From the NCBI GenBank assembly GCA_963796455.1, contig CAWCLO010000010.1:480001-544000 (forward strand): a stretch of 64,000 nucleotides of DNA. Direction: 5' to 3'. Numbering within the stretch: the first letter of the stretch is position 1; each line of letters begins with the position of its first letter. Position numbers: made by a program. Of this stretch, positions 36,001-42,000 are shown piece by piece. The stretch comes from Candidatus Sulfomarinibacteraceae bacterium. Lineage in GTDB: Bacteria; Acidobacteriota; Thermoanaerobaculia; Thermoanaerobaculales; Sulfomarinibacteraceae.

Positions 36001-39000
36001 CAGCGGGAGGTTTGTTGGTGGATCGGACGGGGGCCGGGGCCCGTTGATCAAAGAGGCGATCCAACGCCGCCTTCAGATCCGAGACCGCCGCGCCGCCGAC
36101 GGCCACGACAATCGCTGGAGCGGACTCATCAGCCTCACCGCCGAGCGCCGCATCGAGATCCGCCACCAGAGTGAGGCTGCCACTGGTGATCGAGCCGAAA
36201 TCGTCACCTCCGTCGGTGGCAGGCCACGCCACCGTCGTGGCGTCGGCGAGGGGTTGCGCGACGAGGATGAACTCGGAGCCGTTGGCGAGCGTCGCGATAT
36301 GAAGCCCCTGCGCGGAAACAGAAGAAAGAAATGTGAAACCGGTCATCAACAGACCGAGAAGATACTGGATACAAGTGTTTTGCAGCTTCATGGCGGCCGT
36401 CATGGTAGCATGAAGGGCTATGCGCACTGAAGCAAGGGTCACGGCCCCGTCGATCCTCGGCCTGTCTTGGCTGGCGGCAATCGGGGCCTTCCCCTTCGCC
36501 CTGATCACGGCCGCGACCGGCCAGGGGCTCGGAGCACTGCTCGGCGGCTGCCATTGGATCGGCTTGAGTCTGCCAATCGACCGCCAGGTCTGGGCGCTGG
36601 TCAACCAACCGGCGCTCAATTTCTCCTCCTTGCCGAGTGCGGGCGGTTATTGGCTGGGTTCGCTGGTGCTTCCGTTGTTGATCGCGGTGGCGGCCATTCC
36701 GCTCCTCCCTCGTGGACATTCGATGGTCATCGAATTGCTCATGATCCAGTGGGCGTGGGGCAGCGCCGTCATCGCTGTCGCCTGGCTGCCTCTGCTCGAA
36801 CCCGGGGACGGCCATCTCAGTCGCTGGCTCGCCCTCCATCACATGTCCACACATCTTTTGTGGATTGCTCCCGGAATGGCCGCCGCGGCCGGCGTTGTGC
36901 CAACGATCCGGCTGCTGCAACTCGCGCGCCGGAGACCAGGGGAGATCTCACGAGTTTATCGGTTGGCGGTCGTCGTCCTCCACCTCGGTGCTCCGGCAGT
37001 CGTCTGGGCAGCAATGACGTCGTTAATCAGTGGCCAGGTGCCGGTTGCCGCCGCCGTCGGTCTCCTGGTCCCGGTTGCCGCATCGATAGTGCTCGGGTGG
37101 TTTCGTTACCCCGACGCCGACGTGCGGCCACTGGGAAAGCCCACCGTCTCCGCTTCGATCGGGCTCGCCGTGGCAGCAATCATCGCCGTATCTGTGCTGT
37201 GGTATTCCGGCATGCCCGTCGCGGACGAAAAGCGGGCTGGACGCCTGTGGTCACAACCCCAGGCCTTCAACAACATCAGATCGTGGATCGCGGTGCTTCC
37301 CGCTCTTCCGACATCAATCGACCCACTTTCTCCGGTCAACGGCGCGGAAGTTGAATAGTCTCACCAAGGCTCGCGTTATACTAACCAACGGTTCCGCGAA
37401 AACAGCGGTCAACCCCTAGATTCATCACACGGAGGCACGATCATGAAACCGAAGGTCGAGCAGGCGCTCAACGAGCAGATTCACGCAGAGTTTTTCTCTT
37501 TTTATCTCTATTTGTCAGTTTCTTCCTATTTTACGGCCCAGCATCTTGATGGCTTTGCACATTGGATGCGGATCCAAGCGCAGGAGGAACTCAGTCACGC
37601 CATGAAGCTCTTCGATTATGTCAACGAACGCGGCGGGAAAGTGCAGTTGTTGGCCATGGACGCACCCCAGGTCGAGTGGGCGTCGCCGTCGACGGCGGTC
37701 GAAGCCGTGCTTGAGCACGAAAAGCACATCAGTGCACGTATCAACAAGATCGTCGATCTCTCCTCCACCGAAAACGACCATGCGACAACCGTCATAATGC
37801 ACTGGTTCGTCAACGAGCAGGTCGAGGAAGAAGCAACGGCCGACACACTTTTCCACCAGGTCAAAATGGTGGAATCAAACCCGCACGGATTGCTGATGAT
37901 CGATCGCGAGCTCGCCGGCCGGCCGGCGCCGGCTCCGGTCGGCGCCTCGAGCGAAGCCTGACCCTCGGAACACGGGGCGCCAAGATACGTGGGCGGGTCC
38001 ACGAATCTCAGCGGGGTCTGATCGCGTCCTTGATCAGCGCGCTGGCCACATCGACCCCGGTCGCTTCCTCGAGACGGAGAAAGCCCGGGGTCGGGTTGAC
38101 CTCGATCACCACTGCTCCACCATCGGTGGGGACGATATCGACACCACACTGACCGAGACCCAGCGCCGCGGCCGCTTCGAGGGCGAGCCCTGTCTCTGAA
38201 ACATCCGGTTCGAAAGCATCGAAGGATCCGCCGCGCGCGGCATTCGAGCGCCACTCACCTTCCGCTGCGTGGAACCGTGCAGCCGCCACCAGACGGCCTC
38301 CGGCCACGAGCAGCCGGTGGCTCGTCGCGCCACGTTCGAGCCATCGCTGGACGATGACCTCGTCGCCTATTCTCCACAGGGAGTCCAGAACCGCCTCGAG
38401 ATGGTCTCGGCTGCGGCAGAGAATCACCCCGACGCCCATCCGCGACCGGCGTTGTTTGACCACCACGGGCAAGCCCAACTCTCGGATAGCGGCGTCGGCC
38501 ATCACCTCGGGTTCCAAACCGGCGATCGTCTCGGGAACCGGAAGCCCGGCGGCAGCCAGGACCCGTACGGTCTGCCAGTGGTCTCTGCCACACCGAATGG
38601 CGGCCGGAGGATTTGGAGTTGCCACACCACTGCTCAGCAGCGACTCCAGGATCGCCAACATACTCTCGGGGCGCCAGTTTCCGATTCTGGCCAGGACCAC
38701 GTCGGCACCGTCCGCGACTCCCCCGGGTCGGCACCGATCTGTATCGAGGATTGCGGTACAGGAGGTCGCATCAACGAGCTCGGCGTCAACATCGAGGGCA
38801 GAAGCCGCCTCGACGAGGCGCTTGTTGGCGGCCACGGACGGACGGGCGGTCAAAATCAGCACACGCATCACGTTATGGTACCGCAAAGAGCGCGGGGTGA
38901 TCCCTCAGCTCGCCTCTTGCGGCAAGGACAGGACAACTTCCGTGCCCTCCCCGAGGGTGCTGTCGATGGCGATCGAACCGCCATGGTTCTCGACCACACG

Positions 39001-42000
39001 CTGGGCGATTGCGAGACCGAGGCCGATGCCGTAGCGCTTGCCGGCATCCGTGTCGTCCCCCTGCCAGAACGCCTGAAAGACGTTCTCGAGATCAGCCTCT
39101 GCGATGCCCGATCCGGTGTCGCTGACCCGCAGCTGCAACCAGGGCTCTTTTCCGCGCACCACCCGCCGCACCTCGAGTTTCACCTCGCCGTCCTGACGGT
39201 TGAATTCGATGCCGTTTTTTATCACCGCCCGAAGGGCGGCCTCGGTGCTCTCGGGTTCGCAGAAGACCGAATCGAGCCCGCTCGGGATGAGAATTTGAAG
39301 CCGGACCTTCCGGGAATTCGCCAGATCACGGATCGGGGCCAGGGTCTTGCGGATGAGGTCCTGGATCGGAACCTGCTGCCGTTCGATCTTCCCCGCTTCT
39401 GCGGTGAGCACTTTGGCCTGAAATACGCTCTGAATCATTTCGAGGAGCTTTTCGGCCTCATCGTGCATTACCGTGACAAGCCGGGTCTTTTTGTCATCGG
39501 GTGCGTCCTTCTCACGATCGAGAATCTTGGCCGCCGTGAACAAAGAGGTGACCGGCGTGCGAAATTCCAAAGAGAGTCGATTGATGAGCTCGTTTTTTAC
39601 TTTGTCGAGCGCTTCGAGACCGCGATAGGCATTCTCCAGCAGTTCCTTTTTCTCGGCCAGGTCCTTGGCCAACCCGCGGCTCTCGGCAAGTGTCCTGCGA
39701 AGCTCGTTCGTGCGTTCTTCGACCTGCGCCTCGAGGCCGCGGCTGAAGTCCTCCATCTGGCGCCAGGCAATGGCGTTGGCATAACCCATGGCGGCTGTGG
39801 ATCCGAGGACCGTCGCAAGTTGGAGATCGTCCTCATCCAAACTCGCGCGATCGGCATCACCATAGGCACTCAAGAGCCCAACCACTTTTTCCTGGGTCAT
39901 GAGCGGGATCACGAGCGCCGAGCTGTATCCGGCACCCTCCACCGCCGCCAGAAGCTCGGAATCGCGCTCTTCGCCGATCTCTCTGGCAAGAAGCCGCGGC
40001 TGCCGGCCATCCAGAAGGGTCCCGGCCAGGGTCCCCTCCTCACCATCCGCCGTCTCCAGGAATGGGTCCTTTTTGAAACCGTGAACCACCGCCTCGCGCA
40101 GCTCGCCCGAACCCGGAATGATGAGCACCGAGGCACCCTGAACCTGGAGCAGACGAATAGCATCGGTGATCAAACGGCGCAGGACCTTCGCCGGGTCGCG
40201 TTCGTTGCTGACTGCTCGACCGAACTCCGAGATGCTGTCCATGATCCGGACCTTGCGGTCGAGTTGCCGGCTGAGGTTATCGAGCCGGGTATTGAGGTCG
40301 GTCATCGCCATGTTGGCCCGAACCGCCTCAGAGACCAGGGTCTCCTCGCTCAAGGCCTTGTCAGCGGCAATTGTCTGCTCGGAAACCGTCACCTCGACAT
40401 CGTCGGGTTCGCGCCGGTTTTCGTCATCCCCCATAAAGGGCCGCATCGCATGACGCATCTGTTGTTGCAGGCGCTCGATGGCCTGCGGATTGGTACCGAC
40501 TCCCAGCTTGTCGGCCACCGACGCCAGGGTCCGTTCGCCAATCTTGGCAAAGGCATCAAGGACCCCCTCGCCGGTGATCGCCACGGTCGGAAAGGAGGGG
40601 TACTTTTCGATATTGAGGGCGGATTCCATATCGACTATGGGCATGATCGGGTCGAGATCGCGTTTGTTGTACTGCAGCACCAGCGGCACCGCGCGTCGGT
40701 CAAGACCGTTGGCCGACATGTTCTCCCACAGATTCGCCAGGGCGTCCCTGTTTGCCTGCTCCTGGTCGGTCTGTGAGTCCGCAACAAAAACGATACCGTC
40801 CGCACCCGCGAGAACGGTTCGTCGGGTGGCGTTGTACTGAACCTGACCGGGCACCGTATACAACTGGAGCGCCAGGCGATAACCCCGAATCCGACCGAGA
40901 TTGAGCGACAGGAGATCGAAAAAGAGGGTGCGATCGGCGGCGGTGTTCAACGAATAGAGCTTTGTCCGCCGTTGCGGGTCGGTCACCTTGTGGATATGTT
41001 GCAGACAGGTGGTCTTACCGCCGACGGCGGGACCATAATAGACAACTTTGATTTTTATCTGTCGATACTGATTGTCAAACTGGACCATGGGCCTCCCCAG
41101 CCTGGACAACCATTATGAATCGACTGCTGGTTTAAAACCAGTGGGAAAAAGAAACCGCCTCAAGAGCCGGTTGACGAAGCCTGCCGGCTCCGCCGCGAAT
41201 TCCGGCCCGTCAGCGGGGGAGCCCCGCTCCGGGTGGCACCCGCGGCGCGAACTTGACCGGCGAACCCCTTTTGGGGGTCGAGGGTCGATCAGCAGACGAC
41301 GGGCCCTCCTTCTTGGTCGCAGCGCCTACAGTCGATGCCTCGGCAAAGAAAAAGCTCGCGTCGCCGGTCGCCTCATCAATCACCGTTGCATAGGGGAAGA
41401 TGAGAACATCATCCGGGCCATCCTCAACATAAAACACCAGGCTCCCTCCGGTCATCTCGGGATCAAGGCTTCGCTGGGTGTGACCAAAGGGCGGCACATC
41501 AAAGGTCTCGGAAGCGATGATGGAGCCATCGCTGTCTTGGATGTCGAGGTGAACGACGGTCCAATCGACCGTCCACGAGGCGACACCGACGTTGCAGCGA
41601 AAAAATTGGCCATCGTTGAGGATTCCAGCGGCATAACTGAGTGTCGACCAGTCACCGGCGCGCTCGACCACCGTACCCGGCACCGCGAGACCGAACTCTC
41701 CCCCACCTTCGCCCGGCGCCAGGGTATAGGTCCGGGAAGTGACCAGAAAGTGACACTCCTCGATGGGGTCGCAACGCAGCGACGGGTCCGCATAGGCGAG
41801 GATGGCGGCGGTTTCCTCGAGATCGAATCCATCTGGGCCGAGGACGTCCCACAGATTGAAGGTTTCCCAGGCTGCGAGGGTGATCGTCATGGTTGGGACT
41901 TCGTGGTTGACAGCATCGGATGGGAGCGCCTGAACCACGACCGGGAGTTCAAAATCGTGGGGGTTGTGGAGCGACAGGTCCGTCCGCCAAAACGTGCCCC

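Follow-up and report, generated by a model that had tools for sequence, protein, structure and literature searches.

How does a small G protein come to share a single chain with a histidine kinase, and what remains of such a device once the kinase has lost its phospho-accepting histidine? Coupling between small GTPases and histidine kinases has been described as poorly understood (PMC12236503), and a gene of a Candidatus Sulfomarinibacteraceae bacterium poses both questions at once. The gene lies in the window, the whole 64,000-nucleotide stretch of DNA that was analysed, and reads as one unbroken ORF of 727 residues on the minus strand (window:38905-41088), with an ATG start, a TGA stop and GGGGAGG located 3 nt upstream of the ATG. 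The single frame and the domain map bear out the MglA-coiled coil-GAF-HisKA-HATPase fusion proposed in a preliminary description.

Architecture of the fusion and its G domain

The fusion gene, its parts and its flanking genes occupy the following window positions:

38008..38886, minus strand: RimK-family ATP-grasp gene, directly downstream, syntenic marker
38905..41088, minus strand: whole fusion gene, 727 residues, single open frame from ATG to TGA, in the order MglA, helix, linker, coiled coil, GAF, coiled coil, DHp (HisKA), CA (HATPase)
38914..39378, minus strand: HATPase (CA) domain, residues 571-725, retaining N625, D657-x-G659-x-G661 and GIGLGL
39013..39069, minus strand: F box, ATP lid and G2 (674-692), with GDDTDAGKRY instead of the family lid motif GGNV[LM]TxKP
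39403..39597, minus strand: DHp/HisKA-like domain (498-562), H-box SLEFRTP
39568..39570, minus strand: L507 (TTG) at the position of the phospho-accepting His
39598..39786, minus strand: long signalling helix leading from the GAF to the DHp (435-497; helix 419-525 in the predicted model)
39787..40200, minus strand: GAF domain (297-434; Pfam)
40201..40347, minus strand: family-conserved helix/coiled coil 248-296, LVSEAVRAN here against the consensus LLxxAVxxN, retained whichever domain comes next
40348..40488, minus strand: extra helix 201-219 and variable, low-confidence linker 220-247 (predicted model)
40507..41088, minus strand: MglA-type G domain, residues 1-194 (structure and sequence match to MglA)
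40657..40668, minus strand: G4, NKRD (141-144)
40843..40857, minus strand: G3, TVPGQ (78-82), catalytic Q82
40915..40935, minus strand: switch 1, DRTLFFD (52-58), with Arg finger R53, T54, F56, F57 and D58; Leu replaces F59 of MglA
41008..41034, minus strand: G1 P-loop, GPAVGGKTT (19-27)
41092..41098, minus strand: GGGGAGG, resembling a ribosome-binding site (sequence)
41210..42142, minus strand: upstream gene for a conserved 310-residue protein that falls in no Pfam family, syntenic marker

Pfam matches cover the GAF (297-434), HisKA (498-555) and HATPase_c (618-725) regions, the HisKA score of 26.5 bits lying marginally below the 26.9 cut-off, and among the 25 NCBIfam matches listed for the fusion protein no equivalog reaches its cut-off. 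In structure comparison the kinase core resembles those of HK853 and WalK (TM 0.74-0.79), and of the family's folded domains the GAF is one of the quickest to change. A scan for promoters and terminators performed at chance level (1 found, 0.6 +/- 0.7 expected), its one match falling inside the coding start.

Residues 7-190 match M. xanthus MglA (5ymx) with an E value of 3e-51, identity to MglA structures is about 46-48% (46-47% for 6izw, 6h5b and 6h17), and the fold superposes on 5ymx with Z 24.9 and an rmsd of 2.2 Å over 196 residues, the next best match having Z 16.9. A Roc profile, by comparison, scores 14.6 bits on the G domain against a cut-off of 27. The G1 motif GxxxxGK[T/S] is present as GPAVGGKT. 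An intrinsic Arg finger beside a Thr, TVPGQ and [N/T]KxD are the catalytic features of Group 1 MglA (PMC4316618), and F56/F57 belong to the MglB-binding face of MglA (PMC6785124). The invariance previously noted for G1, R53/T54 and Q82 extends to 50 of 50 diverse aligned members, in which D58, the whole of TVPGQ and NKxD are invariant as well; the same motifs recur in 116 of 119 close database relatives, and F56/F57 are invariant in the fused family. From these motifs we predict a working GTP/GDP switch, which would hydrolyse GTP and might respond to MglB. The G domain is the slowest-changing part of the protein in every group, all His-less ones included.

How this switch might communicate with the rest of the chain is less well defined by the models. 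The full-length model has a pTM of 0.42, with pLDDT values of 53-70 for helix 248-270, no confident docking of this helix on the G domain was obtained, and a disordered linker of variable length separates the two, so that a tether fits as well as an allosteric link. Prediction of a homodimer of residues 1-462 with GTP and Mg scored 0.33 against a mark of 0.42 and carries no weight for or against a dimer.

Loss of the histidine, the ATP lid and the partner gene

The fusion is near-core in its order, as had been claimed: matches at E<=1e-100 occur in 101 of 119 genomes, the same count as before, and in 103 at E<=1e-60. Most of them indeed span the protein in one frame, with whole single-frame copies in 97 genomes and only a split, cut or shortened copy in six (G001, G108, G040, G059, G103 and G017). 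Of 19 rows carrying a stop flag, 18 owe it to the protein's own terminal stop, the sole genuine truncation (at 450 residues) being G051:C39. The family is also present elsewhere in the Acidobacteriota, with matches over the whole length in 45 of 395 further genomes. Apparent fusions in records labelled 'Deltaproteobacteria' or 'Thermodesulfobacteriota' (L192, L198 and L215) are actually short MglAs encoded close to a separate kinase gene. A literature search for this fused MglA-kinase family found no description.

At the H-box position, codon 507 is TTG, three changes from either His codon, and the Leu is thus not a read error. Leu occupies this position in 22 of 25 copies of the genus and, among the 119 closest relatives in the database, in 104 (7 unparsed); DHp helix 1 contains no other His. 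While the reported replacement of His in this genus stands, its retention in other genera does not hold generally: His is absent from 50 of 101 readable order rows, spread over 13 genera, and from 10 of 28 copies read outside the order, with at least three independent losses within the order. Similarly, the DxGxG and GxGL boxes are intact, as described, and N625, DTGSG, F674 and GIGLGL are all kept, but this understates the decay, since the family ATP-lid motif has gone. That motif is found in 50 of 51 His-keeping order rows versus 2 of 50 His-less ones. Order-wide, the N box has Ala for its first Asn, and it is atypical (RAVxKNAxEF) even in His-keeping members, so that their autokinase activity is itself presumed.

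A third loss concerns a neighbour. His-keeping relatives carry an overlapping upstream gene for a REC-HisKA-HATPase partner, and among the 101 readable order rows partner and His occur together in 43, both are missing in 50, His persists without the partner in eight and the partner never occurs without His, a pattern that rests on about three independent losses, one of the three groups being weakly supported (0.81). Here, neither partner nor remnant lies in the 121-nt gap upstream of the fusion gene, and the partner was not found elsewhere in the locus or in this genome (90.5% complete). With partner, His and lid all lost, this copy is, as judged from its sequence and as previously claimed, a pseudokinase. 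Intermediate states survive, with His and lid lacking the partner in g6, g20 and g21, and the lid lacking His in G057 and G061, which sit at the base of this genus. The DHp of this genus changes at 1.45 times the MglA rate, compared with 0.7-1.2 in His-keeping groups and 3.1-4.7 in other His-less groups, which suggests continuing constraint.

Partner receivers retain the Asp in 32 of 45 copies and Asp plus Lys in 24, whereas both His residues are kept throughout. Because the Asp is missing in 13 of 45, simple transfer from the fusion His to the partner REC cannot be the whole link, and its candidacy as the sole link is weakened. The kinase-core tree does not decide whether the partner is a tandem duplicate of the fused core: partner cores form their own clade (98/100) that is not sister to the fused cores of the order, and two unrelated kinases of this genome share their weak wider group. 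Families f22, f29, f30 and f86 have fused cores that branch apart from those of the order, a placement that fits core exchange or saturation alike.

A PATAN/DUF4388 neighbour was considered as a substitute for the response-regulator partner and is unsupported in this order. This gene is encoded on the opposite strand, its occurrence follows family f1, and it is the fusion's neighbour in 8 His-keeping and 40 His-less rows (32 of 105 rows being unclear, with flank or marker missing); it co-occurs with the partner in g2, g8 and g10, remains where the fusion is missing (g14 and g24), and is absent from this genome and from His-less g30. The substitution idea does fit f29, where a TPR-DUF4388 gene adjoins the His-less fusion gene.

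A proposed mechanism and its alternatives

The architecture, the G motifs and the co-varying losses of His, lid and partner can be read from the sequences; from these we infer dimerization, GTP hydrolysis, MglB sensitivity, the direction of signalling and the order of losses. The protein is best read as a helical spine bearing a module for GTP/GDP input and localisation, the direction of the signal being part of that interpretation. Specifically, we tentatively propose, with nearly even confidence, a soluble, probably dimeric rod bearing an MglA switch, which would have been a GTPase-controlled kinase with a partner in the ancestor and would here be a GTPase-controlled pseudokinase with a docking output. 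In the ancestor, the nucleotide state of the G domain would be relayed by helix 248-296, the GAF and the long helix to a true histidine kinase working with its translationally coupled REC-HisKA-HATPase partner, a system that would persist in His-keeping relatives; the 'G-protein wired into a kinase' of the preliminary description is likeliest for this ancestor. This lineage would then have lost the partner gene, the His and the ATP-lid motif, in that order, and with all three gone the present copy is proposed to be unable to autophosphorylate. The remaining device may be MglB-sensitive and pole-localised, with the DHp surface as its non-catalytic docking output. Against an MglB-sensitive input stand the Leu in place of F59 and the distance to mglB. 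The separate canonical mglB-mglA pair reported earlier is indeed present (G000:C10:629485-630554), but the two roadblock genes of the genome (C10:629533 and C10:189659) are more than 100 kb from the fusion and no mglB lies within four genes of it. In favour of the proposal, F56/F57 of the MglB-binding face are kept, and besides the two roadblock genes the genome carries 8 PilB/PilT-type ATPases and 16 DUF4388 domains.

That the G domain is still the most conserved part after kinase death counts against the input reading, since a GTPase acting as output fits equally. Signals might instead run in reverse, the GAF and DHp/CA sensing a ligand or a phosphorylated receiver, as in DivL, and setting the nucleotide state or exposure of two MglA heads towards motility or polarity effectors. 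This is unlikely in our judgement. The slow change of the G domain agrees with it, forms with a GAF only or without a recognisable catalytic core occur, and the DivL paper, as excerpted, offers a precedent for reversed signalling through a His-less core (PMC4211667). The TPR-DUF4388 gene abutting the His-less gene of f29 recalls the TPR effector of M. xanthus MglA, SgmX (as reported in PMC7519303), but none of the genes neighbouring the present copy is a TPR or DUF4388 gene. The same module also forms the N-terminal input end of intact kinases and of a protein with an intact GGDEF domain, and in most His-less lineages the DHp is itself decaying. A phosphatase that has lost autokinase activity and dephosphorylates a receiver under GTPase control appears rather improbable. 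E508-x-x-T511 is retained here, and E/DxxT follows the His position in 24 of 25 genus copies versus 1 of 25 other His-less order rows, a motif termed crucial to HisKA phosphatase activity in an excerpt of PMC12963549; this copy retains intact N, D and G boxes, and the genome holds 48 REC-like frames. Nevertheless, no cognate receiver is linked to the gene, the former partner is lost, persistence of E/DxxT may merely reflect recent loss, and DivL, according to the same excerpt of PMC4211667, binds a receiver without phosphatase activity.

We give little credence to the view of the kinase half as a relic in decay since the partner was lost, so that only the MglA and dimerising helices matter and the fusion is a fourth, long-tailed MglA paralogue. 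Although the decay is stepwise, the GAF has been dropped in one lineage (G017), the gene is absent from its syntenic slot in g14, g24 and G019, and the two other long MglAs of this genome bear proline-rich tails only, in 13 His-less genera the frame is still full-length and retains its N, D and G boxes, and in this genus DHp plus CA outpace the G domain in rate of change by a factor of only about 1.5. An ordinary active kinase using another residue, or an assembly error, is disfavoured and scarcely credible: the ATP-binding boxes are intact, but the codon is far from His, the Leu recurs throughout the genus and its database relatives, the lid motif was lost together with the His, and DHp helix 1 offers no other His.

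A possible portable MglA-helix module and its relation to known systems

Among 75 cluster representatives chosen for covering the MglA-helix module, 41 carry HisKA and/or HATPase. The kinase follows straight after the helix, without a GAF, in P0169, P0180 and P0262; one representative (P0178) is GAF-GAF-GGDEF with an intact GGEEL, two are PAS-REC, and a PAS-kinase-REC architecture is also headed by MglA. In a tree, 35 signalling-type MglA domains, which have a following helix in common, separate from 40 canonical and tailed ones on a 99.5/98 branch. It is conceivable, if on balance doubtful, that MglA plus the conserved helix is a portable G-protein input module that arose once, whose GTP/GDP state switches the attached enzyme, whether histidine kinase, hybrid kinase or diguanylate cyclase. 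In that case MglB of the cell would be its GAP, so that pole position would set two-component or c-di-GMP output; His-less copies would then be repeated conversions to GTP-gated pseudokinase scaffolds. Since relatives place the same switch before intact kinases and a diguanylate cyclase, this may be an unstudied route that connects a small G protein directly to the signalling enzymes of bacteria. The known meeting points of small GTPases with two-component systems (Frz-RomR-MglA, conservons) involve separate proteins; with both in one chain, the coupling becomes testable on a single purified protein together with three G-domain mutants of standard type. A natural series from kinase to pseudokinase is also provided by the family (in the proposed order partner gene, His, ATP lid, then ExxT), every stage of which exists in living genera; as the present copy is late and catalytically reduced, His-keeping relatives are the better experimental subjects.

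With the Group 1 MglAs of M. xanthus and T. thermophilus, SofG and Bdellovibrio MglA (PMC4316618), the G domain shares the fold, the Arg finger beside Thr, TVPGQ, NKxD and F56/F57. Those proteins are single-domain, whereas here the domain heads a 727-residue protein on a separate branch, with no neighbouring mglB and Leu for F59; coupling to mglB within four genes is typical but not required, and orphans exist (PMC4316618). The single-domain length rule of the Group 1 survey is 150-240 residues, and the fused family escaped it because Wuichet and Sogaard-Andersen left out proteins >240 aa (PMC4316618). Conservons (AGPS; CvnA-D with the GAF accessory CvnF) likewise combine a small GTPase, a histidine kinase and a GAF in one signalling unit, for which a flow from kinase to GAP/GEF to GTPase has been proposed (PMC12236503, PMC4316618). 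However, they use separate polypeptides, a Group 2 GTPase (GTPGQ, Thr for the Arg finger), MglB and CvnC, in contrast to one chain with a Group 1 domain (TVPGQ, R53) and neither MglB nor CvnC in the locus; rather than a four-gene cvnA-B-C-D operon, the neighbours are the RimK-family gene and an unnamed protein. DivL (PMC4211667) and PsmA (PMC12963549), in the excerpts of their reports, also have a HisKA-CA body without the His and act as non-catalytic sensors or scaffolds in polar organisation. Those excerpts describe a GTPase domain for neither, and PsmA lacks the ATP boxes and D/ExxT that this copy keeps; the present protein differs, too, in having putatively active, His-keeping orthologues in sister genera. 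Soluble GAF-HisKA-HATPase sensor kinases (HK853, WalK and PhoR-like cores) show the same order of GAF, signalling helix, DHp and CA, but here an N-terminal GTPase is added, the His is missing, the N box is atypical and the lid has decayed. Roco proteins, defined by a Roc followed by a COR domain, join a Roc-COR GTPase and a kinase in one chain, as in LRRK2. Like them, the fusion has a small G domain and a kinase on the same polypeptide, yet it has no COR or LRR, its G domain is MglA-type and followed by helices and a GAF, and its kinase is of the histidine rather than the Ser/Thr type.

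Architecture and distribution of the MglA-GAF-kinase fusion

The fusion gene is a single open frame of 727 amino acids with a GGGGAGG site directly 5' of its start; it is listed here with other genes of the window.

18619-18918 (+), DUF4388 domain gene, about 20 kb from the fusion
34397-36619 (-), frame without a Pfam family, presumably resembling a degenerate M16 peptidase
38905-41088 (-), MglA-coiled coil-GAF-HisKA-HATPase fusion
41210-42142 (-), protein of 310 aa with no Pfam family; of 70 clustered loci, 61 keep it in synteny with the fusion, and in the Atlas it sits near unnamed clusters from Acidobacteriota and has a weak lead to DUF5719
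42849-43409 (-), no Pfam family, clusters with frames in 39 loci
47176-47547 (+), 123-aa frame with no Pfam match, which we take to be Hfq/Sm-like in appearance

The MglA G domain occupies residues 1-194 (E 3e-51 against M. xanthus MglA) and finds its structural match with Z 24.9 and an rmsd of 2.2 Å, compared with Z 16.9 for the runner-up. Pfam assigns GAF to residues 297-434 and HATPase to 618-725, while HisKA (498-555) scores slightly below the cut-off. An AlphaFold model built on an alignment of 50 rows (mean pLDDT 80.9, pTM 0.42) is confident for the single domains and not for their placement relative to each other. It predicts that residues 201-219 form an additional helix and that the linker 222-244 is disordered; a long helix (248-294) then leads into GAF, and an unbroken helix (419-525) joins GAF to the DHp domain. 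All 50 aligned members (27-77% identity) share G1, R53, T54, F56, F57, D58, TVPGQ and NKxD without variation, and the position of MglA F59 is Leu. These invariant residues are Group 1 features in PMC4316618 and include catalytic and MglB-facing residues named in PMC6785124. By its sequence, the G domain is intact in its motifs.

The fusion was matched in 103 of the 119 Thermoanaerobaculales genomes at E<=1e-60 (64 of 73 high-quality genomes), and all 105 best copies in the order were cut out for reading. It is whole and in a single frame in 97 genomes, is split in G001, G108 and G040, is cut by contig ends in G059 and G103, and lacks GAF in G017; for 18 of the 19 stop-flagged rows, the stop is the protein's own terminal stop. 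Four fusion-less genomes retain both flanking markers, the downstream RimK-family gene and the upstream gene for the 310-aa protein, around a slot without the fusion, and therefore represent true losses. Elsewhere in the Acidobacteriota, 60 of 395 sampled genomes match, 45 of them end to end. The same architecture occurs in one Planctomycetota-titled record (L203), whose assignment may reflect a binning error since it is a single assembled genome. The MglA-GAF-kinase architecture is real, conserved and built from known parts.

In addition to the fusion, the genome that holds the window (G000) encodes a canonical mglB-mglA pair, preceded by a gene that we assume to be recR-like, and two MglAs with long Pro/acid-rich tails (C1:232720-234801 and C1:1057964-1059451), both of which recur in 5/5 other order genomes tested. 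These three paralogues are kept in 5/5 fusion-less order genomes tested, and a set of four MglA paralogues appears to be usual for the order. G000 also has 2 roadblock genes, 8 PilB/PilT-type ATPases and 16 DUF4388 domains. A second fusion paralogue of the NKQD type, which keeps the phospho-accepting His, is found in genera g18, g19 and g23 (L047 = G044:C1, L129, L135), and in G044 the gene immediately downstream of it encodes a PilB/GspE-type ATPase.

Loss of the phospho-accepting histidine, the partner and the ATP lid

The position of the phospho-accepting His is L507 in this copy, which is almost certainly unable to autophosphorylate on His; an active kinase is the reading to which we give next to no weight. 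A partner gene encoding REC-HisKA-HATPase is present in 45 of the 119 order genomes at E<=1e-60, always directly upstream of the fusion, and its stop overlaps or abuts the fusion start in 44/44 loci recovered. Neither tblastn nor a profile search found the partner in G000; its absence elsewhere rests on a single protein query, with G008 too fragmented to judge. Among 105 order rows, His and partner occur together in 43, both are missing in 50, His is present without the partner in 8 (3 of these being a second paralogue at a different locus), the partner without His in none, and 4 are unreadable. In the whole-protein tree, from which 7 partial rows were left out, His was lost in at least three places within the order: in this genus, nested among the His-keeping g3, g6, g7 and g20; in g30, nested inside family f2; and in a ten-genus group that is weakly supported. 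The co-variation of His and partner is suggestive and no statistical proof, because three events are few. Outside the order there are further losses, with 10 of 28 copies read without His.

The ATP-lid motif GGNV[LM]TxKP is kept in 50 of 51 His-keeping rows versus 2 of 50 His-less rows, and these two are the deepest-branching copies within this genus. The DHp rate relative to MglA is 0.7-1.2x in His-keeping groups, 1.45x in this genus and 3.1-4.7x in the other His-less groups. We infer that the kinase was lost in steps in this lineage. Two observations speak against a simple reading: all 45 partner copies keep their own His but only 32 of the 45 keep the REC Asp, and the N box of the fusion is atypical even in His-keeping members.

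In the neighbour survey (48 neighbours scanned, hand-picked from 106), a receiver gene often stands beside His-keeping copies outside the order (families f22, f31, f63 and f82, and L184) and adjoins the g19 copy within it; the scan found no receiver gene adjacent to His-keeping f30. His-keeping copies of f82, f14, f63 and g20 (L100, L102, L142, L143, L035) lie amid genes for receivers, anti-sigma-type HATPases and SpoIIE phosphatases, which suggests an output by partner switching. The His-less fusion of f29 abuts a ~500-aa TPR-DUF4388 gene (L082:2-1486 (-), L158:7244-8794 (+)), a candidate MglA effector. In most f1 genomes, the fusion and the RimK-family gene are separated by a convergent DUF4388 (PATAN-like) gene of ~460 aa (L250:1323-2699 (-), L248:1591-3054 (+)), which occurs in 23 of 25 cases in this genus but in neither G000 nor its sister G075. 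A swap of the response-regulator partner for this PATAN-like gene is not supported in the order.

The MglA-helix module and the direction of signalling

When 75 MglA domains picked by hand were placed in an unrooted tree over 190 columns, 35 domains that head or adjoin signalling modules were split from 40 canonical and tailed MglAs on a branch supported at 99.5/98, to which long branches could contribute. The signalling-branch MglAs share a post-linker helix with the consensus LLxxAVxxN regardless of the next domain. Among 75 representatives scanned out of the best 150 clusters, selected for covering most of the profile, the MglA is followed by HisKA and/or HATPase in 41, GAF only in 9, PAS with or without REC in 4, GAF-PAS in 1, GAF-GAF-GGDEF in 1 and nothing further in 19, some of which are probably fragments. 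The kinase comes straight after the helix, with no GAF, in P0169, P0180 and P0262. P0178 (772 aa, MglA-helix-GAF-GAF-GGDEF), with G motifs and GGEEL intact and an RxxD site, is a small GTPase fused to a diguanylate cyclase that is likely active. Holophagales records (L147, L156, L157, L163) read MglA-PAS-kinase-REC, and Vicinamibacteria-type records (L146, L149, L159) carry an MglA with a degenerate HisKA-like tail. In L192:2985-5230 (+), a short signalling-branch MglA directly precedes a separate PocR-HisKA-HATPase gene, possibly a split form of the system.

As the outputs vary, the constant element is MglA plus helix in the N-terminal input position, and this is the main argument for an input role, from which we infer the direction of signalling. 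We tentatively favour a scheme in which the GTP/GDP state of the G domain would ancestrally gate the histidine kinase via the helical spine and, in this copy, would control or localise the docking surface of a pseudokinase. Signalling in the reverse direction, with the GTPase as output, is a less probable alternative; it draws on the G domain, which outlives the kinase and evolves more slowly than the other folded domains in all His-less groups, and on the precedent of DivL in PMC4211667. That this copy acts as a phosphatase only appears improbable, yet its E/DxxT motif, whose role in phosphatase activity is described in PMC12963549, is kept in 24/25 copies of this genus versus 1/25 other His-less rows. 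A kinase half reduced to a relic tail is more doubtful still; the N, D and G boxes of the kinase part are invariant in the fusion family.

Relation to known systems

The literature searched, covering few subscription papers, contains no description of an MglA-kinase fusion, and the MglA-histidine-kinase architecture is apparently unstudied so far. Databases name the relatives by automatic composites, for example 'signal transduction histidine kinase/signal recognition particle receptor subunit beta'. The survey in PMC4316618 excluded sequences >240 aa, and it links kinases to MglA groups solely as separate genes, although its supplements might list long matches. This copy is a late form, a pseudokinase, of the fusion family, which is itself a variant of G-protein/histidine-kinase coupling. 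The family differs from the conservons, in which the kinase, the GAF protein and the Group 2 GTPase are all separate proteins, as described in PMC12236503.
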